DNA of 64,000 bases. Origin: a bacterium. Lineage in GTDB: Bacteria > Patescibacteriota > Minisyncoccia > Phycocordibacterales > UBA1550. Where the stretch lies: contig JAUSES010000060.1 in the NCBI GenBank assembly GCA_030649835.1, positions 6,411 through 70,410 of the forward strand. The letters run 5' to 3'. A program made the position numbers and the translations under genes. The notes beneath the pieces were generated by a model, which was not told the origin of the DNA, did no database searches, and saw only the letters and a list, made by a program, of their open reading frames with translations. Within the stretch, counting starts at the first letter, position 1. Each line of letters opens with the position of its first letter. This document shows, one piece after another, positions 5,903 through 61,121 of the stretch.

Positions 5903-6122
5903 CCCGTTAGAGGTAGGAAATTGATCCCGTTAGAAGTGGCGTCACGCTGCGTTACCTCGCGACTTCTAATGGGACAAGTTTCCGTAGTTAATTATTATCT
6001 AATAAGCATACAAACTTTATATTTTATTTACCCGCTAGATTCTCCTCAAAACTGAGTCCCACCCGCCATCACTTGAGCACAACTTTTTGCTGTGTTCTGG
6101 CGAAAGTGGGCGGGGACCTCTA
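5903..6122. repeat. MITE-like element, copy A, with 14-bp perfect terminal inverted repeats 'atcccgttagaggt'/'acctctaacgggat'. It abuts the pyk start codon.
   Basis: About 85 nt at 6040..6127 is an exact reverse complement of 21438..21520. The outer ends also match ('ttcatcccgttagaggtaggaaa' versus its RC at 21596..21622). Confidence 0.6.
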
Positions 6123-6311
6123 ACGGGATTCATTGTCGTGTTTGAATTTGAATTGTAAGAACGTATTATATCAAAATTTTGCATTTTCCCCAAGTTTTGC
6201 TATTATGCATTTTGTATTCTGCGTAGCCGAATCAGCTGATTCACATCTTGGATGAAAGCTTGGCCAAAATCGTGGCAATTCCAATCTGCTATTAGTAGAA
6301 TCAAAACATAT

Positions 6312-6386
6312 TCCGCGGTAGCTCAGTGGTAGAGCAAGCGACTGTTAATCGCTTGGTCGTAGGTTCGATCCCTACCCGCGGAGCCA
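6312..6386 (+). tRNA. tRNA-Asn (anticodon GTT).
   Basis: Manual cloverleaf: acceptor tccgcgg/ccgcgga; D-arm gctc-agtggta-gagc; anticodon stem agcga/tcgct with loop cuGUUaa; T-arm gtagg-ttcgatc-cctac; discriminator G; encoded CCA. Confidence 0.9.
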
Positions 6387-8129
6387 GTTAGGACGAGAGA
6401 GCTCGAAAGGGCTCTTTTGTCGTTTAAGGGCAACGCTATTTCTAGGTTCGAGCGCATCAATAAGTGCTTTTTGCTCTCTCATCTCATTTTCTATCAGTAA
6501 ATATGGATGAAGCTTATCAATAGTGAGTATTTTGTCCTTCAAAATTAGGTTCGAGCCAATCGTAGAAAATATCTCTCTTTTCTTTCGAAGATCCGGTTTA
6601 TTAAATTGATCTCTTGCGAAAGTGCAGAAATTAAACACGCGCTCGGCAATTTCAAGATCACCGTCGAGCTTCTCTTTGGTTCCTCCCATTTGTTTTTCTA
6701 TTGCTGTCCTTTGAGCAATAATCTCTTTTTTCTGCTCTTTGAATTCCTCAGGCGTGTATATTTCGTATTTTGAATTCAGTGGTGAGGAAAATTCTCTACT
6801 TATATTCACGAGCCGTGTCTGACAATCATCGTAAGAGGACTGCAAGGACATGCGAACCGCTTTTTCTTCCCCGCCAGAGTTCTTTTGTTTGTCTTGCAAA
6901 TATTCAAGCGCAAGCTCAAGATATTCTCGATCAATCGTAATATCCCCAAGAATCTTGTCGAACTGTGATTCAAGGTCTTCGAGCTTAATGTATTTTTGAG
7001 AACAGTTTTTATTCTTTTTCTTTGTGCAATGATAATACACATAGTTCAAAACCTTCGGGCTCTCCATGTCTGAAATATCAATCGCACATTTAGGGCACGC
7101 GGTACGATTCACATTAGAAAATTTATACTTGCATGCTGAGCAAATTATCTGATTCTTTTCTTCGGCGGTAATAGTAGAATCACACTCACCGCAACGCATA
7201 AGCCCCGTGAAAGCAAACTCTCGCGTTTGTGGTTGAGGCTTTCCATTTTTCCCAAGAAGAACTTGCGCTCTTTTATATTCTTTTTCTGTAATCATCGCCG
7301 GGTGATTCCCTTTAACCATCTTTACTTCACCCGTATCCGGGTCCGTCCATGGATAATAGCCATAGTAGAAAGTATCCTTAAAAATATTATACATATGGCT
7401 CATTGTCGGCGGATTACCTCCAATTTTTCTATGTTTTAAGGTTGTTAGACCCCATTCGGTAATTGCTATCTCGCGTATTTTTGAAACAGAATAAGTGCCC
7501 GTGAGGAATAGGTCCCACATTTTACGAACGAGCTCAAAACGCTCCGGATCTAGTGCAATAGTTTTATTTCCTTTTTCTGTACCTACATTCAAGTAACCTA
7601 TCGGGCCACCTGAGGGTCTCCATCCACGCATAGCTTTGCTATTTAATCCACGCTTCACATTCTTAGACAAGCGCATCACATAGTCAGTAGCACGCCCTCC
7701 TTCGATACTCATGAGCAATCCAGCATCTTCAGGATAGTAAGAGCGCCCGGGGGTCTTTATGACCTTAATGACTCCCTTCTGAAGCATCCACTGCAACCGT
7801 CCGTTGTCTATGGGGTTTCGAGAAAGACGGTCAATATCCCAACATAAAAGAGCGTTCGCTTCTCCTTTTTCAATTCTGTTTAACACATCATTGAAAATCG
7901 GTCGCCCTGGATCCTTCGCACTTTTTTCTTCAGTGAACGGGTCTCTCGCCAAGCTCAACTGCTCACGCTCTGCAACCTGCTTAAGCGCATTAGTTTGATC
8001 GCCAATAGAAGCAACTTGACGCTGAGAATCCTCAGAGCTCTTGCGACAGTATGCGAAGTACTTTAGCTTTTCATTTTTGTGCATAAAATAATCTACTTGT
8101 ACTATCCATTGTATCATCTTCGTAGCCAT
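6372..8129 (-). CDS. Large serine recombinase (resolvase domain, recombinase domain and zinc ribbon; phage-type integrase). The likely true start is an internal Met near 8084.
   Basis: 'YFAYCRKSSEDSQRQ' is the catalytic Ser motif of serine recombinases. A Cys cluster 'CGECD...CSAC..C' matches a zinc-ribbon insertion domain. The 3' end overlaps tRNA-Asn by 15 nt. Confidence 0.85.
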   Translation of the reverse strand: MATKMIQWIVQVDYFMHKNEKLKYFAYCRKSSEDSQRQVASIGDQTNALKQVAEREQLSLARDPFTEEKSAKDPGRPIFNDVLNRIEKGEANALLCWDIDRLSRNPIDNGRLQWMLQKGVIKVIKTPGRSYYPEDAGLLMSIEGGRATDYVMRLSKNVKRGLNSKAMRGWRPSGGPIGYLNVGTEKGNKTIALDPERFELVRKMWDLFLTGTYSVSKIREIAITEWGLTTLKHRKIGGNPPTMSHMYNIFKDTFYYGYYPWTDPDTGEVKMVKGNHPAMITEKEYKRAQVLLGKNGKPQPQTREFAFTGLMRCGECDSTITAEEKNQIICSACKYKFSNVNRTACPKCAIDISDMESPKVLNYVYYHCTKKKNKNCSQKYIKLEDLESQFDKILGDITIDREYLELALEYLQDKQKNSGGEEKAVRMSLQSSYDDCQTRLVNISREFSSPLNSKYEIYTPEEFKEQKKEIIAQRTAIEKQMGGTKEKLDGDLEIAERVFNFCTFARDQFNKPDLRKKREIFSTIGSNLILKDKILTIDKLHPYLLIENEMREQKALIDALEPRNSVALKRQKSPFELSRPNWLRG

Positions 8130-8364
8130 AAAGCATTGGTCTCAAATTTTGAGTTTCGCACTTTCTTACCAATCTTTTTACACTCATTAATTCCCTGAAT
8201 CTTTCTTTTCCAAATTCACCATGTTGCGCTTTTAACAACTGTTTAACAGATTTTTCACCTTCTTCACCCAAATATAATATTCTACATATTGCACATTCTA
8301 TTATTCCACTTTCATTAACTTTAGGATCATGAGTATGTTTGTCCCCTTCGCAATTTTTGACCAT
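8071..8364 (-). CDS. Hypothetical protein on the island.
   Basis: 97-aa ORF immediately upstream of the recombinase. I recognise no domain. Confidence 0.3.
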   Translation of the reverse strand: MVKNCEGDKHTHDPKVNESGIIECAICRILYLGEEGEKSVKQLLKAQHGEFGKERFRELMSVKRLVRKCETQNLRPMLYGYEDDTMDSTSRLFYAQK

Positions 8365-8542
8365 ATAAAGGTCAATGTCTTCGATTGAATTAATTGCCTT
8401 GATTATATTATTTTCATATGATTCGTACCTATTTTCTTGGTAATTTTCTTAATTAGTAATATACACTTGCCGAGTTACCGCCTTATAGCCAAGAAGACAC
8501 AAAGCTTACTCAGCAAAACGGCAACACATTTATTAACTGCTA

Positions 8543-8935
8543 CTAAAATGGTTCATCTTCATTTATCACTAAGGATTCCTGTGGCTCTTTGGGCATAAAG
8601 CAGAAGTTTTCTTTCCCATGTTTCGCTGTATCAATTTTCCCTTCATTAACTAGTTCCCTGAGAGCGACTTGAACATTCTTTGACCCAGCTACTTTCTTTA
8701 GTATTTCAGTCATTTCTCTCTTGGTTTTTCCGCCATCAGGAAGAATCTCAAGTATTCTCTCTTTTGCTTCCTCTTTTTTGTTTTCTTGGTCCTCAATTGC
8801 TCCACCATAACTAAGAATCGTTTGAACCCCATCGGACCCTTCCTGGTCTTTTATAATCGCCTTGAAGGGGTCTATTTCCTTCGTAAGGCGATTCTTTCGC
8901 TGGTATATGTCTATCTTCTTCTCCTCCTGGCTCAC
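8543..8935 (-). CDS. Hypothetical protein with a probable winged-helix. It may be the C-terminal part of the RepA-like protein after a frameshift.
   Basis: 'TKREMTEILKKVAGSKNVQVALRELVNEGKI' looks like a wHTH. It overlaps the upstream AAA_25 ORF by 125 nt in another frame. Confidence 0.4.
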   Translation of the reverse strand: MSQEEKKIDIYQRKNRLTKEIDPFKAIIKDQEGSDGVQTILSYGGAIEDQENKKEEAKERILEILPDGGKTKREMTEILKKVAGSKNVQVALRELVNEGKIDTAKHGKENFCFMPKEPQESLVINEDEPF

Positions 8936-9647
8936 TCTTCAGCATAAGCAATATTTCCACTGAGGCGGTTTTATCAGTTGAGCCAAACAAAAATTCCTTC
9001 TTTGGAACCTTGCCCTCGAAATTGCTTGGCTTGCGGAAGTGGTCCAAGAATACAACAGCGACACCTTTATCTTTGAGGACTTTGAGGCGGTTGAAGAAAG
9101 TTCTAATTTCATCTGCTTTTTCCTCCTTAATTCCACCCGACACTGCCCTAAAAGTATCTAGAAAAACAACTTTTATTTCGTAATACTCAATAACATTTAG
9201 AAGCCACTGCACCCCTTCGTTCGTATTGAGATTTAATTCTGTATCACTGTAAACTAAAATCTTTTTATTGCTCTCGTCAAAGCCTAGCTGTCTTCCTCTG
9301 CGCTGTGCCTCACTCTGAGACATTTCCATGTCAACATACAGAACATTGGACGCTTCGGTTTTGAACTCCTCGCGTCCAAGAAAATCAATTCCAAGGGCAA
9401 TACATCTAGCCATATCCATCGCAAGCCAGGTTTTCTTTTCTCCTGTAACAGAGGCTAGGATGACAAAACCTTCGCAAGGGATTAGGCCCTGAACCAACCA
9501 CCTTCTCTCTGGGAATTTTTTATTTCCTAGAGTTGTCCAGCTCATCGGCTCAAAGAACGGCTTCTCAATCTCTCTATCAATCTCCCTCATTTCTGAGCTT
9601 TCATTCCTTTCCTCCGCAAACTCCTTAAATGTTTTCTCTTCGTTCAT
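8811..9647 (-). CDS. RecA-like ATPase of the AAA_25 / RepA-like family, a probable mobile-element replication or mobilisation protein.
   Basis: 'GFVILASVTGEKKTWLAMDMARCIALG' is a P-loop of the RepA/AAA_25 type. 'VVFLDTFR' and 'VVFLDHFRK' are Walker B-like strands. Confidence 0.7.
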   Translation of the reverse strand: MNEEKTFKEFAEERNESSEMREIDREIEKPFFEPMSWTTLGNKKFPERRWLVQGLIPCEGFVILASVTGEKKTWLAMDMARCIALGIDFLGREEFKTEASNVLYVDMEMSQSEAQRRGRQLGFDESNKKILVYSDTELNLNTNEGVQWLLNVIEYYEIKVVFLDTFRAVSGGIKEEKADEIRTFFNRLKVLKDKGVAVVFLDHFRKPSNFEGKVPKKEFLFGSTDKTASVEILLMLKSEPGGEEDRHIPAKESPYEGNRPLQGDYKRPGRVRWGSNDS

Positions 9648-9870
9648 AACTTTTAGGCAATGTTATTTTATTAATATCAAGACTGCTTGTCACCGCCCCA
9701 ATAAGGCAAACAAGATTTTCGAAATACTCAAAAGCTTGTGCATCAGAGATGACCGTTTTGTTCTTAGCTTCGTAAAGCTCCTTGAATTTTTTGAGATAAG
9801 TATTTTTATCAACCATAAAATAAAACCCACTATTGAGGACCTGACTTCGCCTAGAAAGTCGGGACCTCAA
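9625..9870 (-). CDS. Hypothetical small protein.
   Basis: 81-aa ORF that heads the minus-strand island operon. Confidence 0.3.
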   Translation of the reverse strand: MRSRLSRRSQVLNSGFYFMVDKNTYLKKFKELYEAKNKTVISDAQAFEYFENLVCLIGAVTSSLDINKITLPKSYERRENI

Positions 9871-9892
9871 TAGTGGGTTCCTCTAGGCGAGC
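9835..9892 (-). terminator. Imperfect 22-bp hairpin followed by a U-tract (minus sense), a probable terminator after ORF 9981..10733.
   Basis: aacccactattgaggacctgac...gtcgggacctcaatagtgggtt is an inverted repeat. It is followed on the minus strand by 'tttattttat'. Confidence 0.5.
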
Positions 9893-9980
9893 GGATATAA
9901 AATATCCTGTGTCTAGCATAAAGAAACCCGTGTTTTTTCAACACGGGTCATGGATGGGTTTATTGTGGGTTACAGATGGG

Positions 9981-10733
9981 TTATTCTACAATTATCCTGA
10001 AACCAACTTTTTCAATATTGTGAAATATATCGGTGTTAACAGCACAGCCTTCAGGTAATATCTGCAAGTCTTCTTTAATTGTTTTAATTATTTGTCCTAT
10101 ATCAGAATATTCTGTTTTATTCAGCGGGAAGCCGAGCGCGTTGCAAAGGTCTTTATAGCTAGCTTGCTTTTCATTGGCATTCAATAATGTTTTCAACACA
10201 TTAAATTTTTGTTGATCTGCTTTAAAATTTACTTTTACTTTTCCAAGAGTTGTATCTCCAGTAATTGTATTGAAGGTAAGTTTATTTTTTCTACCAAGTG
10301 TAATTATACTTGGGTTGACGATTGTGGTTTTAGGTAGTTTCTTATTGAATACGTCGTCACCAGCCTCTTTCAAGAGGTTTAGGTGCTTGCTTGTTTCTGT
10401 GCGAATATTTTTTAGCAGGGTCTGAGATTCCTCACTTTGAATATTGCTGTATTCAATTCCTCCCTTTAAATTAGGAACGCTGTCTGCTTCGTAAAACTTA
10501 TAAAATTCGATATTATCCCTTTTTGCCATAGTGAGGAAATCTTTTATATCTGACTTCCAAATTTGATATCTAGAAAAAACTTCATCAAGTATATTTTTCT
10601 CTGCATATATAGCATCTCCTTCTTGGGCTTGGCGAGTAATATTTATACCCTCCAATATCAAGTCAGAAAATACTCTTTTGAGTTTACTAGGCGCCATGAT
10701 TGTAAATCCTACTCTTTTTTGACATAATGGCAA
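9981..10733 (-). CDS. Hypothetical protein on the island.
   Basis: Clean 250-aa ORF. I recognise no domain. Confidence 0.5.
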   Translation of the reverse strand: MPLCQKRVGFTIMAPSKLKRVFSDLILEGINITRQAQEGDAIYAEKNILDEVFSRYQIWKSDIKDFLTMAKRDNIEFYKFYEADSVPNLKGGIEYSNIQSEESQTLLKNIRTETSKHLNLLKEAGDDVFNKKLPKTTIVNPSIITLGRKNKLTFNTITGDTTLGKVKVNFKADQQKFNVLKTLLNANEKQASYKDLCNALGFPLNKTEYSDIGQIIKTIKEDLQILPEGCAVNTDIFHNIEKVGFRIIVE

Positions 10734-10939
10734 TACAACTGAATAGCAGTCGGCCTAACCCTTAGGAGTTTAAATGCTTAAGGTATGGTTGCGCAAATCC
10801 CATGGAAGGTACTGAACCCCGCGTTCAGCGACTCTTCCATGGGTCATATCGGGAAACTGGTATGTGGACGCAAGTCCTAGCTGGCGCGGGGTTCTGTGTT
10901 TATACCCCACGCTAGCTATATTATTGGCTAGCTATTTTT

Positions 10940-11206
10940 ATGAAAATTAACTCATCTTTATTAATATCAGGAATAACATTAATTATAGGTTTAACATTTA
11001 GTAAAACCGATCTTTTTTTACCTATTTCAGTATTAATTGCAAGTATCATTGGCCTCATTACTAGACAATGGGTTACATCAGACAGACTTGGAAGGGCTAC
11101 TAGGTTGAGCATCTTACTTAAATTCTTTTTATCTCTTATTGGTTTTTATGCAATGATAGGTCAACTCGTATGTATTTGGCTATTAGTAAGGTGGTTTATT
11201 CTATAA
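10940..11206 (+). CDS. Small membrane protein (3 TM helices).
   Basis: Hydrophobic 88-aa ORF. It is the first in a plus-strand run of small ORFs. Confidence 0.4.
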   Translation: MKINSSLLISGITLIIGLTFSKTDLFLPISVLIASIIGLITRQWVTSDRLGRATRLSILLKFFLSLIGFYAMIGQLVCIWLLVRWFIL

Positions 11207-11514
11207 AACATGAAAATATGTCCCAAATAATTACATATAGACACGACAGAGAATATGGATACTGTCATATAAAACTCGACTCTGGAGAAAGAATTCTGTT
11301 ATCAGAGGCGAGTGACTATATAAAAATCTTCAAATTACTTTTTGGTATCATTCCAATAAAAACAATTTGGAAATGGCATAGAACAAACGATCCAAAAGAA
11401 ACCGTACTTAAAATTATGGACAATCATCAAGATACTAGTTTCTTTGATTCATTTGTAAAAGAAATACAAAAATATCGCTCAACCGATGAGATTAAAAATA
11501 AATTCGGTAAATAA
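11170..11514 (+). CDS. Hypothetical protein. The probable start is the Met at 11218.
   Basis: Soluble ORF of 98-114 aa. I recognise no domain. Confidence 0.4.
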   Translation: MYLAISKVVYSIKHENMSQIITYRHDREYGYCHIKLDSGERILLSEASDYIKIFKLLFGIIPIKTIWKWHRTNDPKETVLKIMDNHQDTSFFDSFVKEIQKYRSTDEIKNKFGK

Positions 11515-11523
11515 AATAAATTT

Positions 11524-11835
11524 ATGGACAAAAATTATCAGAAATATTTATCGATAACAGCGGGAATAATGCTCCTCTTGGCTATCCCAGCAATCTGGCC
11601 TTATGGATATTTTCAGATTCTAAGGTGGATTGTTGCTGGAGTGGCCGTGTATAACGCATATTTCGCATACGAACTAAAGAAAAATGAATGGGTGCTTATT
11701 ATGATTGCCGTAGCAATACTATTTAACCCGATAGCTCCAATTTTTCTCCAAAAAGAAACTTGGGTAATTCTAGACCTGGTTGCCTCTGTTTTAATGTTTG
11801 TCTCAATTATAAAATTAAAAACTAAAAAATCATGA
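11524..11835 (+). CDS. Small membrane protein (3 TM helices).
   Basis: Hydrophobic 103-aa ORF. Its end overlaps the next ORF by 4 nt (ATGA). Confidence 0.5.
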   Translation: MDKNYQKYLSITAGIMLLLAIPAIWPYGYFQILRWIVAGVAVYNAYFAYELKKNEWVLIMIAVAILFNPIAPIFLQKETWVILDLVASVLMFVSIIKLKTKKS

Positions 11836-12365
11836 TAGAAAAAATTAAAAACATAGGGTGGACTGGGGCTGGCTTGCTCTTTATTCTATTGGTATTTATT
11901 CTAATAGGCTTTTTGGTGGTGGGAGGAGTTGGTTTTATTGAGAATCATCAAAACCTGATAGAATCAGTAAATAATGTAACTGCGGGTATTTTCGTATTAT
12001 TACTTCTTTTTTCTGTAATACCAAAATTACGAATTTTCACTGGAACTGGGATTGTATTTTTAACATACATCTGGATATTTTTGCTATGGTTAACTTGCTT
12101 AGTTATAACTTACGAATTCTGGGGCCTTATAGGAATCTTTATCGGTGTAATAATGTTTGGTGTGGGTTTATTTATTACCGCCCCTCTTGCTTTACTTTTT
12201 TCAGGCCAAGGGTTTGGCGCACTTCTGTTGCTTCTCTCTATTGGGCTTACTTACCTAATAAGAAATTTGGGGATCTGGATTGTCAGCAAGTATCCAGAGG
12301 CAGGTGTCTCTACTGAGATAAACACAAGCGACATAAATGAAGTAAATGATAAATTTGATAAATAA
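11832..12365 (+). CDS. Membrane protein (4-5 TM helices).
   Basis: 177 aa, very hydrophobic, with an acidic C-terminal tail. Confidence 0.5.
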   Translation: MIEKIKNIGWTGAGLLFILLVFILIGFLVVGGVGFIENHQNLIESVNNVTAGIFVLLLLFSVIPKLRIFTGTGIVFLTYIWIFLLWLTCLVITYEFWGLIGIFIGVIMFGVGLFITAPLALLFSGQGFGALLLLLSIGLTYLIRNLGIWIVSKYPEAGVSTEINTSDINEVNDKFDK

Positions 12366-12389
12366 ATTTTTTATAAAAACATTATTAAT

Positions 12390-12761
12390 ATGAGAATTTG
12401 TATCAAATGCAAAAAAAGAGAAGGTTCTTGGTGGGACCATTTGTGTCAGTATTGTCGCAAGATACCAGTATCTAAACCAGAAGCTCTTGCCTATGAAAAA
12501 TTAAATGAATCTAAAGATATTTTGAGTCAAGATAGGATTGAATATACCGTCAATCTAGAAAAAGCAACTAGTAGTTATTCCTCGAAGTTTGTTAATTTAA
12601 GTAAGGAACTTATTGAGAAGCTAGTAGGATTTTTGTTTCTTGTATTGTTTATGTTTTTAATTTATTTTGTAGCTAGTTGGTTTAAATTTGATACAAATAA
12701 TAATGCTGAAAATTACGAGCCATGCAAAACTTCTGGACACCAACTTTGGCAAGATTGCTGA
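12390..12761 (+). CDS. Zinc-ribbon protein with a C-terminal TM helix.
   Basis: The N-terminus 'CIKCKKREGSWWDHLCQYC' is a CxxC...CxxC motif. A hydrophobic segment follows at 'FLFLVLFMFLIYFVASWF'. Confidence 0.5.
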   Translation: MRICIKCKKREGSWWDHLCQYCRKIPVSKPEALAYEKLNESKDILSQDRIEYTVNLEKATSSYSSKFVNLSKELIEKLVGFLFLVLFMFLIYFVASWFKFDTNNNAENYEPCKTSGHQLWQDC

Positions 12762-12787
12762 TGTAAAAATGAGATATAATTACAAAT

Positions 12788-13069
12788 ATGAATGAAAAAG
12801 AAATATTAAAACTTAATGACGAAGTGCTAAAGATGAACAGTCTTGACTTCGCTAACTTTTTAGAAAAGAAAACGAAAACATACCAAGATGTTGAGCAGAC
12901 AGTATCTCAGGGTGGGGATGTTGCGTTTAAAACTATTCTTGCATTAAAGTATAAGGTATTTATTTTGGAAAACTCCAAGAAGAAACTGATTGTATATTCC
13001 TTCTTACTAACTATAATCATAGTACCTTTAATTATCCAAAGTCTTTCTTTTGTACTTCCAGAAATGTAA
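12788..13069 (+). CDS. Small protein with a C-terminal TM helix.
   Basis: 93-aa ORF. Confidence 0.4.
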   Translation: MNEKEILKLNDEVLKMNSLDFANFLEKKTKTYQDVEQTVSQGGDVAFKTILALKYKVFILENSKKKLIVYSFLLTIIIVPLIIQSLSFVLPEM

Positions 13070-13079
13070 AAATAAATGA

Positions 13080-13277
13080 TTGAGGTATCTTAAAGAAAAT
13101 CAAAATACTATGAAAAAATTAATAGGTCTTATCTCAACAAAAGGCAAGACCTCTGAGCAAGCAAGCAAGGAGGTTACGGACGCTTTCCACAAGTTCAACA
13201 AGATACAAAAGCAGGTTGAAATTGAAATGCGAGAGGAGGAGCTGTCACTCACACCCCAGCACGAGTGTCAGAAATGA
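13080..13277 (+). CDS. Small charged/coiled-coil protein.
   Basis: 65-aa ORF. Confidence 0.3.
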   Translation: MRYLKENQNTMKKLIGLISTKGKTSEQASKEVTDAFHKFNKIQKQVEIEMREEELSLTPQHECQK

Positions 13278-13301
13278 AAATAACAGCGGTAATATAAAAA
13301 T

Positions 13302-14063
13302 ATGCTTGGCGCAATTATTGGTGATTTTGTGGGGTCATACTATGAGTTTAACGCGGTCAAAACAAAAGACTTCGACCTTTTCCCCGTGGGCTCGAAATTT
13401 ACCGACGATACTATTCTTACCCTCGCTACAGCACACGCTATTCTAAATAAAGAAGATTACGGTAAATCTTACAAAAACTTTTTTTGGCAATACCCACTTA
13501 AAAACTACGGCGAGCGATTTTACGCATGGGGCAAAAGAGACGACTCTGAGCCATACAATAGTTTTGGTAACGGGTCTGCGATGAGGGTAGCTCCTGTCGG
13601 GTGGGCTTTCAATATCATTGAGCAGGTTCTTGAGGAGGCAAAGAAGAGCGCTGAAGTGACCCATAATCACCCAGAGGGGATAAAAGGCGCTCAAGCCGTA
13701 GCAAGCGCAATATTCCTCGCAAGAACTGGGGCAAGCAAAAAAACAATCAAGGAATACATAGAATTAAATTTTGAGTACGACCTAGATCGTTCCGTGGATG
13801 AGATACGGGAAACGGCCGTCTTTAACGAGACGTGTATGATAAGCGTTCCCGAGGCGATTATTTGTTTCCTTGATTCTGAATCATTTGAAGATGCCCTACG
13901 AAATGCAGTTTCTCTTGGGGCAGATGCTGACACCCAGGCATGCATCGCCGGAGCAATAGCAGAAGCATTTTACAAAGAGATACCGGATTTTATACGAGAG
14001 GAGGTATTGAAGCGCTTACCTAAGAAATTCCATGGGATGATTGATGAAATACTCACTGCATAA
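13302..14063 (+). CDS. ADP-ribosylglycohydrolase family protein (DraG/ARH-like).
   Basis: N-terminal 'GAIIGDFVGSYYEF', mid 'GNGSAMRVAPVG' and C-terminal 'GADADTQACIAGAIAEAF' match the binuclear-Mg ARH signature. Confidence 0.85.
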   Translation: MLGAIIGDFVGSYYEFNAVKTKDFDLFPVGSKFTDDTILTLATAHAILNKEDYGKSYKNFFWQYPLKNYGERFYAWGKRDDSEPYNSFGNGSAMRVAPVGWAFNIIEQVLEEAKKSAEVTHNHPEGIKGAQAVASAIFLARTGASKKTIKEYIELNFEYDLDRSVDEIRETAVFNETCMISVPEAIICFLDSESFEDALRNAVSLGADADTQACIAGAIAEAFYKEIPDFIREEVLKRLPKKFHGMIDEILTA

Positions 14064-14167
14064 GAAACGCTTCCAAATATCTCCCGTTTCCATGTGCTGA
14101 TTCTGCGCGATCAACCAGAATTCTGTAATTTTTTATTTCCATTTTTTAAATATAAATATGATGTACC

Positions 14168-16561
14168 CTACAGGCGAACTTGCTCTTGTACGTCTAGTTG
14201 AATCAGTTCTTGGAATTCATTCAATGTAATTACTTCCTCTCTAAAATTATCTGAATCAGATAAATCTCTTACCGTTAAAATAAAGGCGTAGGGTTGATTT
14301 TCTAAGTTTTCTTTTCCAAGAATTTTACTTTCATAAGATTGTGTTGCAGACAACTGTAAAAGTACCTCTAGCACAGTAGATGGTACTTTTTTCTTTATTT
14401 TTTTAAAATGAATCACATTGTGATTTGGGTTCCTGTAATGGTCCCATGTTGGAGTCTGGTTTAGAGACAGTGCTTTATTTTTTTCTTCAACCTCACCATT
14501 TTCATCAAGGATTGGGACCAAGAACCGAACTGCTGGTTCAACACTCATCATCTTATATTCTTTTGGGTAATTTTTATCAACGGGAGGGTTATAAGCAAGA
14601 GTGAATATAAACTCTACCTTTTTACCCAAGATACTTTCTGGGAGCTGTATTTGTAATTTGTGTTTCCTCTCAACGTAATTAATCTTATCTGCATACATTA
14701 ATGTTAGTTCATTTTCATTATCCTTTAAAGCAAGCTTGTGGTCGGGGACTCCAAAACCATATGCTCGTTTTATATGGTCATCCTCGATTTTTACTTGTGG
14801 AGCTTTTGCGGTTGAATGAATCAAAAGTGCCTTAACGAGATTAAGTTTATTGTTCTCTAAATCAACATAATCTGATGCTTTCGCTTTCTTTATAAAATCT
14901 AACAAAAACGCACATTATCTAGTGATTAAAGGCGCACTTAGGCTAGTGCCAATGTCTTTGTTGAGGCCATCCTTATTTATGCTCTCAACGCCAAAAACCT
15001 GATTTGAGGATATCATGTGAGCATTTCCATAACCAAAGCTTGGGTCTTTTTTTACATTACCTCCATTAGCAACCAATTCTGGTTTCTTAATATCTTTAGC
15101 GACACTGGAAGTACGCGTAAAAGGGGCTGGGAACCCTTGCTCAACATTTACACAACTAGCGTCAGCCTTACCCGAAATTGAGCCAACTGAAATTACATTA
15201 AGAGCATCACTTGGTGATGCAATAAGAGATTTTTCTTGTTTAAAAATAGTATTGTAATTTTCACTAGCGTAAACTTGATGGTTACCGACAGAACAAACAA
15301 ATATCACATCGTACTCCCTAGCTATATTATCCAAGAATTCGGTCAATTCACTCACGTCGTCTTTGTCTATCGGTTCATTTTCATTAATAGAGAGATTATA
15401 TATTGAAATATCTTCATACCTATTTACAACCTCAGAAATTGCACCCTTTAGTTCATCAAGGGAGACGCATTTTGAATCACTACCATCCAAATACAATACT
15501 TGTATGTCTAGAATATTACATGTTGGAGCAATAGAACCACCCCCTGTTAATTGCATAAAGAAGTTGTCACCAAACAAAATTCGGCTGGCCACAATAGTAC
15601 CGTGGTTCTTGTCCTCGACCTGATGTCGAGACAAATAATTATGGTGATGAGCCCTAAGCTGTTGGAGTATTGGATTATATATACCACTATCAATGAGACC
15701 CACTCTTTCTGCTGTTAGTGGAGCAAGGAGATTCAGTGCCCCAAGATTAATCTCTGGGATACACCTCTGTGAACTCAAAATTGGTTGCTCTCTTATTTTG
15801 CCGATAAAATTAAAATCTGCATCACTTAAAATACCAATAATTTCATTTGCTGTAAGGGTCGCCAAGAATGATATGTTACTAAAAAATAAGTTTATATTTC
15901 TCTTTTTCAATTTTCCACGAAAAACAAGTTGATCGTTCAAAGAATCAAAGAGTGTGTCGTATTTATCTTTGCCAATATTTGGGTAAATCTCAATAATGCA
16001 ATCAATTGTTTGATTTAAAATATTGCCATGAATAAGTGAGTAGATATAATTACTTACCCGGCCCTCAATGATTGTATTACGGTCTGTGACTGCCGACATG
16101 GCATACAATTCACGCAACAGATTCTTGTCTTTTTTTCTTGGTAAATCCTCCCCTGTGAGGGCAGCATCAAATGAGCCGCTATTGCTTATACTAACCAAAC
16201 GGTCAAAATCCTCTATTTTCCCACTAACGATAAATGTTTTGTCGTTTTTAGAACCAACAATTTCAAGCCCCGTCTCATTCCACACATCAGCAGGACTGTT
16301 AGATTTTGAGTTTGCCAGCTCATCTAATTCGACTTCGACATACAGTAATTTCCCGGCAGTTTTTGCTTCCGATTTTATTTTTTTAACAGTTGTATCAATC
16401 TGCCTTACGCGCTTTGAAAACACTCTGGCGTAATGTTCGCGGGTATCATCAGTAATTTTCTTTTCCCAAAACGACTTCCAAAAATCAGAACCTCCTCCAG
16501 GCTTTTTACCTTTATTTATCTTCTTTTTGGGTACAACAATTGAAAAGTTCATATATTTCAT
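14168..16561 (-). pseudogene. ietS: Subtilase (peptidase S8), IetS-like. It is split into ORFs 14915..16561 and 14168..14905 by a single in-frame TAA at 14915..14917.
   Basis: The Asp motif 'VGLIDSGI', the His motif 'NHGTIVASR' and the Ser motif 'GTSLSAPLITR*' are present. The downstream ORF is in the same frame and continues with a subtilase-like C-terminus ('LVKALLIHS', 'AYGFGVPD'). Confidence 0.6.
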
Positions 16562-17661
16562 TTTATATTGTCACGAAGCGTAGTGTACGCAATACCAGAA
16601 ACTTCAGATATGTCAATTAAATTGAAACTGCTATCTTTTAACACTTGCGCAATTTCATAAAGATTCTTTTTGTTAAGCCTCTGTTTTGATGTTAATTGGT
16701 GATTAAAAGAAATAATATGTTTTAAGCAAAAAATATTATCTAAGCTTATACCCTCTATTACCGATGCTCTTTTTATGTTTTGGCATATATCATTAATTAA
16801 AGAACCATTTAAACCAACAGTGACTCTTGCCATTAAATTATAGTCTAATGATTTATTTTTATTAAAATCACTTAAAAACAACTCAAACAATAGAGCCCTC
16901 GATTCCTCTTCTGGGGTATTAATTTCTAACCTTAGCCCGAATCGTCTCCATAGTGCCTTGTCCAACAACTCATCATGATTTGTTGCTCCAATTAGAATTG
17001 AAGTCACTGGGAATAAGTCAATATTTTGAAGTAACACAGTAACTACTCTCTTTAATTCCCCCAACTCCCTTGCATCATCTCGATGTTTAGCTACTGTATC
17101 AATTTCGTCAAAAAAGATGACTACTCGCTCCCTTTTTGCAATTTCAAAAACCTCGCTAATGTTTTTCCCTGTTTTACCTAAATACGATGAGACTAGTTCA
17201 TCTAATTTGACAATAATAAGTGGGAGGTTCAATTTATTCGCAAGAGCATAAGCTAATCTTGTTTTCCCTGTACCAGGTGGTCCATAGAAAAGAATTTTGT
17301 TTATAGGGGAAATATTATTTTTAAGTAACTTATCAAAAGCTTCCCAATGCTTTATAAACTCAATTATGGTTGTCCTTGTATTTGGATTAAGGACAACAGA
17401 ATCTAATTCGATGTTTGAGTAAATTTTTTCAAAAAGAGTATCGTTATTGTTTAGATTTATATTCCTAGAAGTTAACGACTGCCCAGATAAGGAATGCCCC
17501 CTAGACACATCTTTAATCAGATTTGACAATCTTTTGGCAACTAATATTTTTCCGTTAGCTCTTTGTTTTTTTATCTCCTTTTCTAGGACAGAAACAACCT
17601 CCTCGTTTTTACCTGAGGAAAAAGCCTTTACGATATCTTCTACGATATTTATAGTTGCCAT
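16558..17661 (-). CDS. ietA: AAA+ ATPase, IetA-like partner of the subtilase.
   Basis: Walker A 'GPPGTGKT', Walker B 'VIFFDEIDTV' and the classic AAA sensor region are present. Its stop overlaps the start of the S8 gene (ATGA). Confidence 0.8.
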   Translation of the reverse strand: MATINIVEDIVKAFSSGKNEEVVSVLEKEIKKQRANGKILVAKRLSNLIKDVSRGHSLSGQSLTSRNINLNNNDTLFEKIYSNIELDSVVLNPNTRTTIIEFIKHWEAFDKLLKNNISPINKILFYGPPGTGKTRLAYALANKLNLPLIIVKLDELVSSYLGKTGKNISEVFEIAKRERVVIFFDEIDTVAKHRDDARELGELKRVVTVLLQNIDLFPVTSILIGATNHDELLDKALWRRFGLRLEINTPEEESRALLFELFLSDFNKNKSLDYNLMARVTVGLNGSLINDICQNIKRASVIEGISLDNIFCLKHIISFNHQLTSKQRLNKKNLYEIAQVLKDSSFNLIDISEVSGIAYTTLRDNIK

Positions 17662-18041
17662 AAAATCCGTAATTTAAAAAAACCAACTAAATTAATACTC
17701 TTATTGTATCATATTACGAAAATTAATGTAAACCATATTTTCGTAATTATATTTGTACCCCCCTGATGAGCACTCCAAAGAATAGCTAAAAAATATAAAT
17801 GAGTTTTTGAGAATTAATTTTCCCCAAGAGCCTGGGGGTATGGGTATCCCCCCAGGCTCAAAATGGCTCTATGTTCACACAAACTACCCAACGCCGTATT
17901 TTCCATCACACGGGGGCCTACGTCGAGGGGTATGCACACCGCCCCTGCCCTATTGCACTGAGAGATTGGGAACATAAAAATCATCAGATCGAGTGGCTAT
18001 CCAAGTTCTAATAGCCTCGACTGTTCGGAGCAAATTAAAAC

Positions 18042-18066
18042 CCCTCGAAAGAGGGTGTTTTTATTT
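18042..18066 (+). terminator. Short GC hairpin plus T-tract (cccctc-gaaa-gagggtg-ttttt).
   Basis: Stem-loop followed by 'tgtttttatttg' inside the long noncoding tract. Confidence 0.4.
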
Positions 18067-18089
18067 GCTCCGCGGAGTAAAGCGAAGCT

Positions 18090-18460
18090 TTACGGTAGGG
18101 ATCGAACAGCGGAGCGATATTTTGTTAGCAAACAAAATCGCGAGCTGGTGCCCAGACAGAACTTTTTGACGAAAAAGTTTTAGTCGAGGGAGATATCCCT
18201 ATCCGCCCGGTAAGATCGAAGACCTTGAGTATATTTATGATGATGTACTCATCTGAAGAAATACAAAGGTGTACCGTTCCTGTAAGGAAAGATACCCCTA
18301 CCCTTAGGGATCGAACCGAAGACCCACCATTTTGGGAATGAGAGTATTCTCGAAGACCTACAAAATGGATGGTCTCGATCGCATGGAAGGGCGATCATGC
18401 ATACAATCAGCACAGCGACCTGGTAAATCGTGACCACTCCCTACTAGCAGAGTCAGTAAG
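18090..18460. repeat. Array of at least three related structured elements (about 110-150 nt each). Each is framed by 'gtagggatcgaa' ... 'ccctac(ccgc)' and contains paired hairpins.
   Basis: Similar cores occur at 18097, 18209 and 18303. 3' motifs 'gata[ct]ccctaccc' occur at about 18200, 18290 and 18447. Internal stems include 'aactttttg/caaaaagtt' and 'gacccaccattttg/caaaatggatggtc'. Confidence 0.45.
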
Positions 18461-18531
18461 GGCACAATAAAAATACCTATAGATACTTTAAAAGACTAGA
18501 ACTTGTTTTAAAAAAATGGTAATTTGAATTT

Positions 18532-19704
18532 ATGAGAAACATTATTTTAGGAATTACGGCCATTGTCATATTTATCGTAGGTTCTCTTGCGATTAGCCAT
18601 CCTTTTTTAAAAGATTCTGAAAATTATCTAGCTGTTATAGAAAAAAATGTTCAAGAGCAAATCACCAATGACGAGAGTCAAGGCGTGTATGAAAACAAAA
18701 CCGTAAAAAAGTGTGAGAACCCTGTGTTCACTTCGTATTTTATTGATCCGCAATATGTACAAAAAGTTGGACAAGTTGGTGTCGTCCATGGTTCCGGCTT
18801 ATACATAGTAGAAAGGTCATATATAAGTGTAAAGGAAAAATTTGCCGCGCAGAAAGTACCAGTATACGCTCCTTCTGACATTGAGCTCGTTGCAGGTAGT
18901 CATTATCGTGATCCTGCTGCTCCAAGTAATGCCCTACCCGATTATGCCCTGTGGTTTGACGCGGGATGTGATGTAGAAGTAAATCTAGCACACCTCAAAG
19001 AAGTTGCTCAACCGATTGCTTTACAATTACCAGATGTAAAAACAGACAGCAGGAATACACGACTAAAGCCTTTGCAATTTAAAGCTGGGGATCTCATAGG
19101 ATATTTTATTTATAGTCATGGGGATGTTGCAGGATTTGATTTTATCGTCAGAGACAAAAAGGTGTTAAATAAATTTATCAATCAAGAAAGATATTCCGAC
19201 CATAGAGCATCAAATCTTATCAATGGCGTTTGTCCTTATGATTATTATGAACCTAACAAGAAAAAAACATATTATAATTTGCTAGGCGGAGCCGGAGGAA
19301 CACTCTTCAAAACTAAAGACTGCGGAAAATCATCAAGAGATGTTGCTGGCACCATTTCGGGGATGTGGTTTTTGAGTCAAGAACCGCAGAATAACATCTA
19401 CGAAAGCTACAAGGAAGGACTGTATGGCAGTACTTTGTCTATAGTAGGAGACGAGGAAAGGATCACTATAGGTAACTTGGGAGAAAGTCGTATGTCTTGG
19501 ATATATAACAACAACCCCACCTACAAACTACCCGAACAGGTAAAGAGCGAGCACTGCTATAAGTTTGATGGGTTCACTCCAGGAGATAATAGGGGCTGGG
19601 TTTACTTTAAGTTCGTTTCAGATACACAGCTTGATGTCTTTTTTTCTCAAACAGGAACTTGCCCATACTCACTTCCGCCAAACGCCAAACGATATTATAA
19701 ATAG
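18532..19704 (+). CDS. Secreted or membrane-anchored hypothetical protein.
   Basis: It has an N-terminal TM/signal 'ILGITAIVIFIVGSLAI'. The ORF is 390 aa with no recognised domain. Confidence 0.6.
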   Translation: MRNIILGITAIVIFIVGSLAISHPFLKDSENYLAVIEKNVQEQITNDESQGVYENKTVKKCENPVFTSYFIDPQYVQKVGQVGVVHGSGLYIVERSYISVKEKFAAQKVPVYAPSDIELVAGSHYRDPAAPSNALPDYALWFDAGCDVEVNLAHLKEVAQPIALQLPDVKTDSRNTRLKPLQFKAGDLIGYFIYSHGDVAGFDFIVRDKKVLNKFINQERYSDHRASNLINGVCPYDYYEPNKKKTYYNLLGGAGGTLFKTKDCGKSSRDVAGTISGMWFLSQEPQNNIYESYKEGLYGSTLSIVGDEERITIGNLGESRMSWIYNNNPTYKLPEQVKSEHCYKFDGFTPGDNRGWVYFKFVSDTQLDVFFSQTGTCPYSLPPNAKRYYK

Positions 19705-19746
19705 ACCCTTTTAATGTAGTAAACAATGAGTGGAGCATAAAAGTAA

Positions 19747-19776
19747 GACCGTCCCCCTCGTGGACGGTTTTTACTT
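19747..19776 (+). terminator. Intrinsic terminator (gaccgtcc...ggacggt + TTTTT).
   Basis: Hairpin plus T-tract about 45 nt after the stop of ORF 18532..19704. Confidence 0.6.
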
Positions 19777-19786
19777 TTGTCATGCT

Positions 19787-19912
19787 TCCGCGCGTGTAGG
19801 GATCGAAGGGATTTTCGGTTTACGCTCGTAGCAACGAGTGCCGAAAATCCCCGTTTTCAATTTCAGTGAGTGGCGACGAACTGAAATTGAAAAAGATACC
19901 CCTACCCGCAAA
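19787..19912. repeat. Fourth copy of the structured element family: an outer 'gtaggg/ccctac' stem enclosing two hairpins. It is a possible small RNA or tRNA-derived repeat.
   Basis: tgtagggatcgaa | gggattttcgg..ccgaaaatccc | ttcaatttcag..ctgaaattgaa | gatacccctacccgc. It is homologous in layout to 18097..18205. Confidence 0.4.
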
Positions 19913-19938
19913 ACCTACAATATTTTCCAAAGAAAAAA

Positions 19939-19962
19939 GGTTGCCACGAGTGGCAACCTTTT
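19939..19962. terminator. Bidirectional hairpin terminator (ggttgccac-gag-tggcaacc), A/T-flanked.
   Basis: Perfect 9-bp stem, with 'aaaaaa' on the 5' side and 'tttt' on the 3' side. It is 20 nt beyond the stop of the minus-strand ORF 19983..20846. Confidence 0.6.
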
Positions 19963-19982
19963 AAATTAATTCAAATACCTAT

Positions 19983-20846
19983 TTACTTAATTGCCTCCAA
20001 ACAAAATGTTCCTTGTGGAGTACAGCGTTTTGGACCATCGAAGAATTTGAAGGCTACGTCAGGCACAGGATATTTGGTCTCTGTTTCATGAACGATATTG
20101 CCATCAAACATCCTGCCACACACCTCATGCGCTTTTTCGAGCGATCCTTGAATATCTTTGCAGGCATCATATTCAACTTTAAGCGCCGCTAATTTATCGC
20201 TAAAGTCTTTTATCCGCGCCACGAGCCTATTATATTTTTCGAAGTATTTGAGCCCCGCTTGATGTATTGCGTTTGCTTCACGATCGCTTTTTTCACCAAT
20301 CTGATTGAGGGTGTCAATGTTTTTAATCAACCGATCTCGGTTTGTATCGATTTCTCCCTTCCACGAATTTACCTTTTCGACAAGCGGATCTAAACGAGCT
20401 TTCTCGATCTGGCACCAATTGTATCTATTCTGATCAACAGTGCCATGGCAAACTCCATTATAAGAATCCGCTTGACCGTTTACGTTTTTTGCAAAGTCAT
20501 TTTGACTTATAATATTATCCTCATGCTTTGTATTCTCCTGCTCAAATGTAGCCCACGCATTGAAAAGAAGGTCTGCTGTCGCAAGCTGGTGTGCTTGTTT
20601 TCCTTCTAAAACTACGCCTTCTTTGTTTGCGATTTTTAAATCCCGAACAGTGCTACGAATAGAGCCAATATATAAGCTGGCTTTTGCATCCCGCGCGTGG
20701 CCTGTGTTTTCATCTGCTGGCACACCACTTGCCCCGCCCTCTGCGTGCGCAAATGCCGTCAGTGCCATCATTAAAACCAAAGTGATATACGTTTTCATTT
20801 TGAACTCCTTATGTTGAATATCTATTAAACCTACAGGCGAAATCAT
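19983..20846 (-). CDS. Secreted hypothetical protein (signal peptide). The probable start is the Met at 20798.
   Basis: 'MKTYITLVLMMALTAFAHA' is a Sec signal. The rest is Cys-containing and coiled-coil-like. Confidence 0.6.
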   Translation of the reverse strand: MISPVGLIDIQHKEFKMKTYITLVLMMALTAFAHAEGGASGVPADENTGHARDAKASLYIGSIRSTVRDLKIANKEGVVLEGKQAHQLATADLLFNAWATFEQENTKHEDNIISQNDFAKNVNGQADSYNGVCHGTVDQNRYNWCQIEKARLDPLVEKVNSWKGEIDTNRDRLIKNIDTLNQIGEKSDREANAIHQAGLKYFEKYNRLVARIKDFSDKLAALKVEYDACKDIQGSLEKAHEVCGRMFDGNIVHETETKYPVPDVAFKFFDGPKRCTPQGTFCLEAIK

Positions 20847-20889
20847 TTTACTCTGCAGGTATTCCTGACCTCAAAAAAATGATGCAAGT

Positions 20890-21243
20890 TTAATCAATCC
20901 ATATACGCCGTTCATCCAAAAAACATAAATCACTACGCGAAACCAACCTTCTTGCCTCTTCGCAATCAAGCCTTGAGGAAAAAGGGCCGCGAGTAGTGCC
21001 CACCTTGTAATAATAGGAAATAAAGTACCAATCTTCCCTTACTGGTTGAGCTGGTCTCACTTCTTTAAATATTAGTGGTACTGGCTTTTGTGTTTCCACT
21101 ACTACTGGCGCTTTTTCTATACCACATAGGGTGCAGGTGAGATCTGGCTTTAAGGTAAGTGGCAGTGGTGCCTCTGCAAAAGCGCCCGAAGTAATCAGCA
21201 AAGCGAAAAGCGAAACCAGCAACATAGCGCGTATTTTTCTCAT
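20890..21243 (-). CDS. Small secreted protein.
   Basis: Signal peptide 'MLLVSLFALLITSGAFA'. The ORF is 117 aa. Confidence 0.5.
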   Translation of the reverse strand: MRKIRAMLLVSLFALLITSGAFAEAPLPLTLKPDLTCTLCGIEKAPVVVETQKPVPLIFKEVRPAQPVREDWYFISYYYKVGTTRGPFSSRLDCEEARRLVSRSDLCFLDERRIWID

Positions 21244-21424
21244 TTCAATCTCCTTGGTTTGTAAATGTTAAGGTGCTCTGCAGGCAAAACTATTTTGCAC
21301 TGTCTGTCTGATACCATATAGATAATTATGTAGACTGTCAAGCGTACGTCCAGCTAGTGACTAGAATATGTAGAATAAACAGTTCCAAAAACCAAAAGTA
21401 AGGTAGTTGTATTCTTATGTTTAT

Positions 21425-21617
21425 GGTAAAATGAATATATGAATCCCGTTAGAGGTCCCCGCCCACTTTCGCCAGAACACAGCAAAAAGTTGTGCTCAAG
21501 TGATGGCGGGTGGGACTCAGTTTTTTAACCTGAGCCTACGGGAGTCTATATAAAAAGTTTATTTATTTACTAGATAATAATCAGCTACGGAAACGCCTAG
21601 CGTTTCCTACCTCTAAC
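21425..21617. repeat. MITE-like element, copy B, inverted relative to copy A. It abuts the start codon of the first M14 peptidase gene.
   Basis: Terminal inverted repeats 'atcccgttagaggt' (21443) and 'acctctaacgggat' (21603). The internal 85 nt are the exact RC of 6040..6127. 'tttcctacctctaacgggATGAAAAA' precedes this gene and also precedes pyk. Confidence 0.6.
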
Positions 21618-21620
21618 GGG

Positions 21621-60787: not shown

Positions 60788-60860
60788 ATTCTGAAATTAC
60801 TTTAACTATAGTAACATTCCTATCGCGTTATGCAACCTTGTAGTGAACCCCCACACCTAC

Positions 60861-61118: not shown

Positions 61119-61121
61119 TTT

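Follow-up and report, generated by a model that had tools for sequence, protein, structure and literature searches.

Why two functionally unrelated genes of one patescibacterial genome share the same sequence up to and including their start codons is the question raised by the locus examined here. The window, by which we mean the whole stretch of 64,000 nucleotides that was analysed (contig JAUSES010000060.1 of assembly GCA_030649835.1, positions 6,411 to 70,410; 41.6% G+C), contains two inverted copies of a repeat of about 200 bp, one adjoining the start of the pyruvate kinase gene (pyk; copy A) and the other adjoining the start of an M14 carboxypeptidase gene (copy B) roughly 15 kb away. A first-pass annotation of the sequence had read the copies as resembling miniature inverted-repeat transposable elements (MITEs), and had suggested that they may supply a promoter or translation-initiation region and that, as a pair, they could permit inversion or composite mobilisation of the DNA between them. 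We conclude, with a probability of about 0.8, that A and B were inserted separately and belong, as non-autonomous, MITE-like members, to a family of tiny elements with terminal inverted repeats (TIRs) found in the Patescibacteria (Candidate Phyla Radiation, CPR). A full-text literature search for such an element returned no description, most subscription journals being outside its coverage, and we know of none; the family is apparently undescribed.

Structure of the two copies

Repeat detection over positions 5000-23000 returned one outstanding inverted pair, 6048-6133 and 21439-21524 (86 nt, 100% complementary), which two weaker collinear pairs extended toward the outer ends; the inverted repeat of the first-pass annotation is thus real, with limits a few bases away from the 6040..6127 and 21438..21520 given there. 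The outer ends themselves (5890-5920 and 21603-21633) match at 94% over 31 nt, 26 nt of which are exact. The 14-mer ATCCCGTTAGAGGT occurs exactly at four positions, 5901, 6116 (minus strand), 21443, and 21609 (minus strand), with a further copy bearing one mismatch at 5924; when up to two mismatches were allowed, five matches were found against 0.34 expected, and none of 100 shuffled sequences reached five. These occurrences bear out the 14-bp TIRs described earlier, as well as the abutment on gene starts and the common 5′ context, since the final two bases of the 14-mer fall within each of the two ATGs, and ...TTTCCTACCTCTAACGGGATGAAAAA is common to the two genes. The ‘AT’ of the gene-side 14-mer is, however, part of a duplicated ATGAA, so the element proper runs from TCCCGTTAGAGGT to ACCTCTAACGGG and has perfect TIR arms of 12-13 bp in both copies.

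Copy A occupies 5903-6128 on the minus strand (226 nt, TCCCGTTAGAGGT...ACCTCTAACGGG in the orientation of pyk), with its gene-proximal arm (ACCTCTAACGGG on the minus strand) at 5903-5914 and its gene-distal arm (TCCCGTTAGAGGT on the minus strand) at 6116-6128. Copy B occupies 21444-21620 on the plus strand (177 nt), with its gene-proximal arm at 21609-21620. Their alignment is a mosaic in which the first 86 nt are identical, the following part is approximately 80% identical with indels, and the last 26 nt, including ATGAAAAA, are identical again. Within the 86-nt segment lies a long imperfect GC-rich hairpin (21458-21514, plus strand, in copy B), and closer to the gene copy B carries a short sub-terminal hairpin, GGAAACGC-CTA-GCGTTTCC (21589-21607, plus strand), whose 3′ arm stops 13 nt short of the ATG and which is conserved across the family. 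The loop of this short hairpin is replaced in copy A by 50 additional nucleotides that form an internal hairpin with TIR-like arms, TCCCGTTAGAAGT and ACTTCTAATGGGA (5925-5974), and a metagenomic copy, L185, has the same arrangement. Reading frames in the two copies span only 29-34 codons, are not conserved between them, and have no Pfam match. At 177 and 226 nt, under the approximately 500 bp that bounds the class, and lacking coding capacity, the copies fit the structural definition of a MITE. No third copy was found in the 64-kb window by nhmmer or by an arm search allowing three mismatches.

Target-site duplications and empty sites

The host gene of copy A, pyk (4469-5902, minus strand; PF00224, PK/PK_C, E 3e-123), has its closest homologues in Candidatus Yonathbacteria and other Parcubacteria-type Patescibacteria at 80-87% identity, and that of copy B (21621-22517, plus strand; Peptidase_M14 by domain match) is the first of a tandem pair. 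Each element is flanked by a 5-bp target-site duplication (TSD), ATGAA, on the strand of its gene. The gene-side duplication of copy A (5898-5902) holds the pyk start codon (5900-5902) and its outer counterpart lies at 6129-6133; in copy B the outer duplication is at 21439-21443 and the gene-side one, at 21621-21625, holds the start codon of the peptidase.

Related genomes preserve the same sites without the elements. In the relative L232, the second and first M14 genes lie on one strand, followed by approximately 550 bp that include tRNA-Asn and then by pyk on the other strand, and no element is present at either start. The pyk sites are also empty in L235, L236, L237, and L238, and copy A is missing from the orthologous pyk upstream regions of L231-L238 as a set. 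In the alignment of L232 with the window at the M14 start, the gap is of approximately 182 nt, which equals the element plus one copy of the duplication: the empty site reads ...TTTGTAGTATAATAAATAT|TATGAAAAAAAC and the window reads ...TTTATGGTAAAATGAATAT|ATGAA, then 177 nt, then ATGAAAAAAAT. The pyk alignment has the same pattern, the empty sites of L235 and L237 carrying a single ATGAA/ATGAAG, so that one ATGAA stands in L232, L235, and L237 where the window has two. Judged from these alignments, the empty orthologous sites and the 5-bp duplications make A and B two separate insertions, and the insertion end that they share explains the 26 bp common to two unrelated genes upstream of and including the ATG.

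Distribution of the family and choice of target

A core 20-mer, CCCGTTAGAGGTCCCCGCCC, was scanned against a genome collection and against metagenomes. It matched one other genome in the collection (L110, labelled as a Saccharibacteria metagenome-assembled genome), where the copy adjoins the ATG of an 83-aa open reading frame (ORF) and is flanked by ATGAAT on both sides; the metagenomes gave no match to this 20-mer. The sub-family with the GC-rich hairpin is accordingly rare, comprising the window copies, L110, and the diverged L185; these four copies stand at four different genes, which argues that non-coding forms do move. The 14-mer TIR, when used as a probe of viral contigs, gave 108 single scattered matches, a chance level that is uninformative. 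A 19-mer from the right (proximal) end matched at least 120 stretches of metagenomic sequence, most of them in assemblies from groundwater and sediment.

Element counts were drawn from 98 oriented unique elements, 93 of which were picked by the 19-mer and five of which were not. Among the 93, a set biased toward the ATG layout because the 19-mer ends in the ‘AT’ of an ATG, an ATG came next in 92, an ORF of at least 60 aa followed in 85, and an exact 5-bp TSD was present in 65. All five oriented copies without the 19-mer had the ATG, the long ORF, and the exact TSD; nine of nine further copies within the same loci adjoin an ATG; and the window copies and L110, which were likewise not selected via the 19-mer, share the layout. 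In five loci picked by similarity of the nuclease protein described below, the end of the cassette lies between a 4-nt overlap with, and 5 nt before, a co-oriented gene (5/5). The sub-terminal hairpin end pointed toward the gene in every oriented case.

Most of 72 unique copies have the same five bases before TCCCG... as after ...CGGG. The duplicated bases that follow ATG vary with the gene (ATGGA, ATGGG, ATGAG, ATGCG, ATGCA), and the two variable positions are the same on both sides in 47 of 68 copies vs 22.7 expected by permutation (p ≤ 1e-5); an apparent G/A polymorphism at the first base of the TIR proves to be base five of the duplication. These flanks show that the family inserts at start-codon ATGNN and duplicates those five bases. 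The contact with a gene start that the first-pass annotation treated as a local 5′ context is therefore confirmed as a contact, but it reflects a family-wide insertion preference rather than an accident of where two copies landed. Only 21 of 69 non-genic ATGRA sites in the window (approximately 30%) are gene starts, vs more than 90% of elements at starts, so the purging of intragenic insertions is insufficient as the sole explanation. Host genes are unrelated in function and include pyk, the peptidase, an antitoxin-like ORF, ATPases of type IV secretion systems, msrA, and rbfA, among others, and several metagenome contigs carry two or three copies each.

Metagenomic elements are mostly of about 120 nt, with further classes near 190 and 278 nt; arm pairs were separated by 40-80 bp (n = 9), 100-140 bp (n = 100), 160-200 bp (n = 8), and 260-280 bp (n = 18). 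No genuine TIR-bounded unit longer than 300 bp, such as could carry a classical transposase, was found in 725 kb of element-rich loci. One candidate for a larger unit, a 725-bp pair in L222, was set aside as two inverted elements in a palindromic contig; there (1941-2700), inverted copies of the same gene start lie outside the inverted elements, either as a real palindromic duplication or as a chimeric assembly. In the class of about 190 nt (L112, L133 with two copies, L153, L166, and L147), a conserved frame of approximately 47 codons (...VMNGNALN...VGRFLPLTG*) stops at a TGA overlapping the start codon of the host gene and is without a Pfam match; this frame may represent either a remnant of the nuclease or another type of cargo.

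Nuclease-coding relatives

The members of 276-278 nt contain a complete gene for a GIY-YIG protein (PF01541, E 9e-17 and 5e-15), whose closest solved relatives are the UPF0213 proteins 1ZG2 (BH0048; E 2e-8) and 1YWL (EF2693). These full-length cassettes share TIRs, hairpin pairing, and TSD with the short elements, and so give the non-coding forms a coding partner. Their protein is 84-92 aa long and is reported in databases as either 83 or 92 aa, the 83-84-aa form making up approximately 70% of entries. In most cassettes examined, the ORF stops at a TAA within the proximal TIR (...GASYL*), 4 nt before the host ATG, and in others at a TGA that overlaps the host ATG (...FLPLTG*). The conserved start of the protein, MFYTY, lies 5-9 nt past the GAGG of the distal TIR, and in some cassettes the open frame extends back to the duplicated host ATG (M[DN]PVR[DG]...). 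Translation from that duplicated ATG was considered and not adopted, the frame being open in six of ten cassettes, several of them redundant.

A protein search returned 4,427 clusters at E ≤ 1e-5, the named ones being Patescibacteria. Many clusters end in ...GASYL or ...RFLSLTG and start with M[DN]PVR[DG], residues that are encoded by the TIRs, and TIR variants track protein variants (GAGGT with ...ASYL vs GAGAT with ...FLSLTG). Loci selected by protein repeat the layout of TIR, TSD, and host ATG. In L254, two cassettes stand in tandem behind leaderless promoters of the type TGCTATAAT. In L256 (1501-1788; also L257 and L258), a cassette sits between the stop of infB and the start of rbfA with ATGA overlaps kept on both sides, an arrangement that could maintain translational coupling through the operon; approximately 400 nt downstream, L256 has another GIY-YIG gene, which lacks these TIRs.

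The window has a nuclease cassette of another kind at 60852-61146 on the minus strand, where an 85-aa GIY-YIG ORF (60861-61118) is bounded by a perfect 17-bp inverted repeat, CACACCTACTTATCTAT (60852-60868 and 61130-61146; two matches vs 0.13 expected). It lies 3 nt past the stop of a histidine-kinase gene (61122-63566), the last codons of which extend into the CACACCTACTTATCTAT repeat, and 64 nt before a response-regulator gene. The presence of an unrelated TIR pair around a GIY-YIG gene implies that units containing only TIRs and a nuclease span more than one TIR family.

Promoters and leaders of the host genes

The elements lie downstream of what appear, from consensus, to be the native promoters. 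For pyk, an extended -10 box, TGATATAAT (6165-6173, minus strand), is conserved in relatives and remains upstream of copy A, and for the M14 gene the extended -10 box TGgTAAAAT (21424-21432, plus strand) ends 6 nt before the outer ATGAA of copy B. A sigma-70 scan for internal promoters on the gene strand found nothing promoter-like in copy B and a weak 9/12 match in copy A. The suggestion that the element supplies a promoter thus finds no support, the native boxes staying outside it, and an internal outward promoter was rejected.

The 6-nt spacing of the M14 box in the window is that of a leaderless gene, and the empty M14 site of L232 reads TAGTATAAT, then 7 nt, then ATG; pyk has a leader of approximately 27 nt and is not leaderless. 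Across the family, a TAnnnT box ends 5-10 nt upstream of the outer ATG in 32 of 72 outer flanks (44%), 12 of them with the TGn extension, vs an expectation of 10-13 (10.2 in a shifted-window control, 13.0 ± 3.1 in shuffles). A Shine-Dalgarno-like tetramer at -16 to -4 was found in none of the 72 outer flanks (loci L110-L230), vs approximately 6 expected. A -10 box so close to the ATG marks many targets as leaderless genes, and the flanks suggest either that these Patescibacteria commonly initiate translation without a leader or a Shine-Dalgarno sequence or that genes led by a Shine-Dalgarno sequence are avoided by the element. The target is not always leaderless, as rbfA in L256 lies inside the infB operon.

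Proposed mechanism and mobility enzyme

Insertion at ATGNN leaves the host gene an intact ATG with its own promoter upstream, and the element would be transcribed from that promoter as a 5′ leader of the host gene. A 278-bp parasite could in this manner borrow the promoter of its host and hand translation on to the host gene via the stop-start junction. The GAGG of the left (distal) TIR may act as the ribosome-binding site of the nuclease, and pairing of the TIRs in a read-through transcript may either mask that site or create a site for RNase III, by analogy with the fold-back inhibition of IS10 and with the RNase III processing of Neisseria Correia elements, whose stems are substrates of this enzyme; the same fate is plausible for the stem here. 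The full-length cassette has the same two hairpin arms as the short forms, approximately 165 nt apart, GGAAGCGCC in the codons for DLRKRL and GGCGCTTCC at the 3′ end, and the short forms consequently look like deletions of the intervening loop. The sub-terminal hairpin would then correspond in the full-length form to a long-range pairing within the nuclease gene, and the short forms, both window copies included, would be internal-deletion derivatives that retained TIRs and hairpin alike.

The only protein found between these ends, the GIY-YIG nuclease, is the candidate for moving the family. We give slightly less than even odds to the proposition that the element depends on this nuclease for its mobility and that the short forms are moved by it in trans, and we put forward more tentatively still that the 278-bp cassettes are autonomous transposons and the 84-aa protein a new kind of transposase that inserts its gene and its MITE derivatives at start codons. 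The smallest insertion sequences known to us are of about 700 bp, several times the size of such a cassette.

The alternative that survives best is that the short forms are true MITEs moved by a conventional transposase encoded elsewhere, the GIY-YIG gene being a frequent passenger or a selfish coloniser of them. We consider this rather unlikely. A duplication of 4-5 bp is typical of DDE enzymes, and to our knowledge there is no precedent for a stand-alone GIY-YIG transposase, nor any stand-alone GIY-YIG nuclease that makes staggered insertions of 4-5 bp; the 64-kb window, moreover, has no GIY-YIG gene with matching TIRs, the single one there (60861-61118) having different ends. Yet a conventional enzyme is difficult to reconcile with 725 kb of element-rich loci in which nothing above the 278-bp nuclease cassette lies between the TIRs, with the extension of the nuclease ORF into both TIRs in thousands of clusters, which indicates that ORF and ends co-evolved, with the matching variation of TIR and nuclease, or with the second, unrelated TIR pair of the window, which also encloses just a GIY-YIG gene.

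The want of a precedent for such insertions and of a matching nuclease gene in the window also weighs against the reading that we prefer, that of A and B as insertions of a family with nuclease-coding full-length members, and so do several other observations. The statistics on orientation and ATG lean mainly on the smaller unbiased sets; approximately 15% of copies fit a duplication of 4 or 6 bp instead of 5; a search for recent jumps, in the form of identical nuclease proteins at several loci, found each protein in a single context; the mosaic identity of A and B calls for gene conversion or module exchange; and a structured leader of 177-226 nt separates promoter from translation of the host gene.

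Folding and the possibility of a leader RNA

The elements could instead be non-mobile cis-regulatory leader RNAs, akin to riboswitches, attenuators, or thermometers, with the inverted repeats as the closing stem. Their fixed orientation and their fixed position ending at an ATG would suit such an RNA, as would a very stable fold (z about -8 vs shuffles for the whole element), the three G.U pairs that the GC-rich hairpin keeps on the sense strand, and the sub-terminal hairpin, which in short elements has the form GGAAnnnn/nnnnTTCC with loops of 3-4 nt that include GNRA-type loops and with at least 12 compensatory stem variants across the family. We nonetheless regard a leader RNA as improbable. 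The downstream genes are unrelated in function, the duplicated ATGNN changes with the gene, orthologous sites are empty in relatives, and some members encode a nuclease; in addition, the interior is hypervariable while both arms are invariant in sequence instead of covarying. Rfam 15 gave nothing at gathering threshold, and at E ≤ 1 only a chance-level match to a fungal small RNA (22 bits vs a gathering threshold of 60). An inserted element may, even so, have been secondarily co-opted as a leader.

Two narrower candidates were rejected. An integron attC site, with its consensus order of R″ and R′, was set aside on inspection of the sequence, in which GTTAGAG and CTCTAAC boxes stand in the opposite 5′-3′ order. 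A leader peptide was set aside given that frames from the outer ATG differ among A, B, and L110, and that 11 of 51 short elements are open to the TAA of the TIR.

The interval between the copies

The copies bracket a tRNA-Asn gene (6312-6386) and an island (6312 to approximately 18400) with a large serine recombinase gene (6372-8129) that overlaps the 3′ end of the tRNA. The island further contains an AAA_25 protein (8811-9647), a LOOT RNA motif (10752-10878, plus strand; a full-length RF03000 match of 73 bits vs a gathering threshold of 46), and an IetA/IetS anti-phage pair, with IetA at 16558-17661 and IetS apparently split between 14915-16561 and 14168-14905. At this tRNA-Asn, the relatives L231, L237, and L238 carry different islands, which have serine recombinases and restriction-modification systems.

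The first-pass annotation had raised the possibility that this arrangement acts as a unit, either a composite transposon or an invertible segment of 15 kb, and the perfect 86-nt inverted copies that bracket it would in principle be long enough for homologous recombination. We find this reading very improbable. In L232, the two host genes are divergent neighbours approximately 550 bp apart with neither element nor island between them; relatives hold different islands at the same tRNA, and the island of the window has its own recombinase; and the elements encode nothing, a composite transposon being one in which two copies of a transposase-encoding insertion sequence flank and move a segment. 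Neither gene has lost the upstream DNA native to it, so this assembly carries the interval uninverted. The apparent bracketing arose where two divergent neighbours each gained an element with an island hot spot between them, and the approximately 15 kb between the copies, including the serine-recombinase island integrated at tRNA-Asn, is unrelated to the elements.

Non-coding fragments resembling the 3′ end and T arm of tRNA-Asn occur at 18060-18110, 18296-18320, and 19780-19810 (GCTCCGCGG... and GTAGGGATCGAAC), and L232 and L233 have comparable fragments between the M14 gene and the tRNA; earlier islands may have left these as att scars. Elsewhere in the window, a G-rich decamer repeated in short tandem arrays (GGGGGAACGA, 3-4 units; seven matches vs 0.06 expected) and a related 28-nt repeat were noted at 46073-46107, 55341-55375, and 59876-59936.

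Simple duplication, whether segmental or inverted, of one promoter-leader region common to the two genes, which would agree with there being only two copies in the window and with their identical 86-nt block, and which the first-pass annotation would have inferred from a unit unique to these loci and free of target-site duplications, can be dismissed, since copies stand at unrelated genes in other genomes, precise TSDs and empty sites are present, and the identity of A and B stops exactly at the TIR ends, the 5-bp duplication excepted. The MITE-like reading of that annotation has thus held, on the strength of TIRs, a 5-bp TSD, empty sites in relatives, and many copies elsewhere.

Comparison with known systems

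Among known systems, the family resembles bacterial MITEs that reside in transcribed leaders, namely the Correia repeat enclosed elements (CREE) of Neisseria and the enterobacterial repetitive intergenic consensus sequences and intergenic repeat units (ERIC/IRU), with which it shares a length of 100-230 bp, stem-forming TIRs, a short TSD, the absence of an ORF, adjacency to genes, and, probably, co-transcription with them. It differs from described bacterial MITEs in target, in strict orientation, and in having a putative autonomous partner. In Correia elements the duplication is TA, the 26-bp TIRs are unrelated in sequence, insertion occurs in both orientations and at differing distances from genes, and no autonomous partner is known to us; here ATGNN is duplicated, the TIR is TCCCGTTAGAGGT, one orientation is used, and the ends are common to a nuclease-coding form.

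The full-length members match PF01541 in the manner of the stand-alone GIY-YIG proteins of the UPF0213/YhbQ group, and as small selfish genes wedged between host genes they recall free-standing homing endonuclease genes (I-TevI, Seg/Mob). Homing endonucleases, however, carry a DNA-binding domain and spread by double-strand-break repair into the cognate allele that lacks them, without TIRs or TSDs, whereas the 84-92-aa protein is a catalytic domain only and the family has TIRs, a TSD, and many unrelated host genes. Palindrome-associated transposable elements (PATEs) of the IS200/IS605 group and repetitive extragenic palindromes with their tyrosine transposases (REP/RAYT) are likewise small, hairpin-rich, and multi-copy, with a target of short sequence and a sub-terminal hairpin, but they insert 3′ of a tetra- or pentanucleotide, lack TIRs and TSDs, and depend on an HUH Y1 transposase; no HUH gene occurs in the present family, which has TIRs of 12-13 bp and a TSD of 5 bp. 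In its pinning to a functional landmark, not to a long motif, insertion resembles that of Ty3 and other eukaryotic elements that target transcription start sites, and in the leaderless genes that make up approximately 44% of element targets transcription begins at the ATG itself. Unlike Ty3, a retroelement that TFIIIB tethers, the family has the start codon as its landmark even where this codon lies off the transcription start, as at pyk and at rbfA within its operon.

Implications

If this reading is correct, short-read assemblies would break at these repeats and gene callers would set starts wrongly, as in the 83 vs 92 aa reported for the GIY-YIG protein. The end of the only other public contig with this exact pyk protein (L001, 1-64; Logan SRR13727527) lies inside copy A, in a nested hairpin, which is consistent with the element breaking short-read assemblies. 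Some pyk homologues are longer than 477 aa, and the one that was checked (P0131, loci L233/L234) has no element upstream. For the window itself, the idea of a tRNA island flanked by its own inverted repeats falls away. For the Patescibacteria, the reading would mean that minimal CPR genomes host a very abundant mobile element that copes with genome streamlining because it lands only where it is least harmful, on the start codon, and the combination of start-codon specificity with a candidate minimal nuclease-transposase would offer a system in which a new chemistry of transposition, and a tool for site-selective insertion, could be tested directly.

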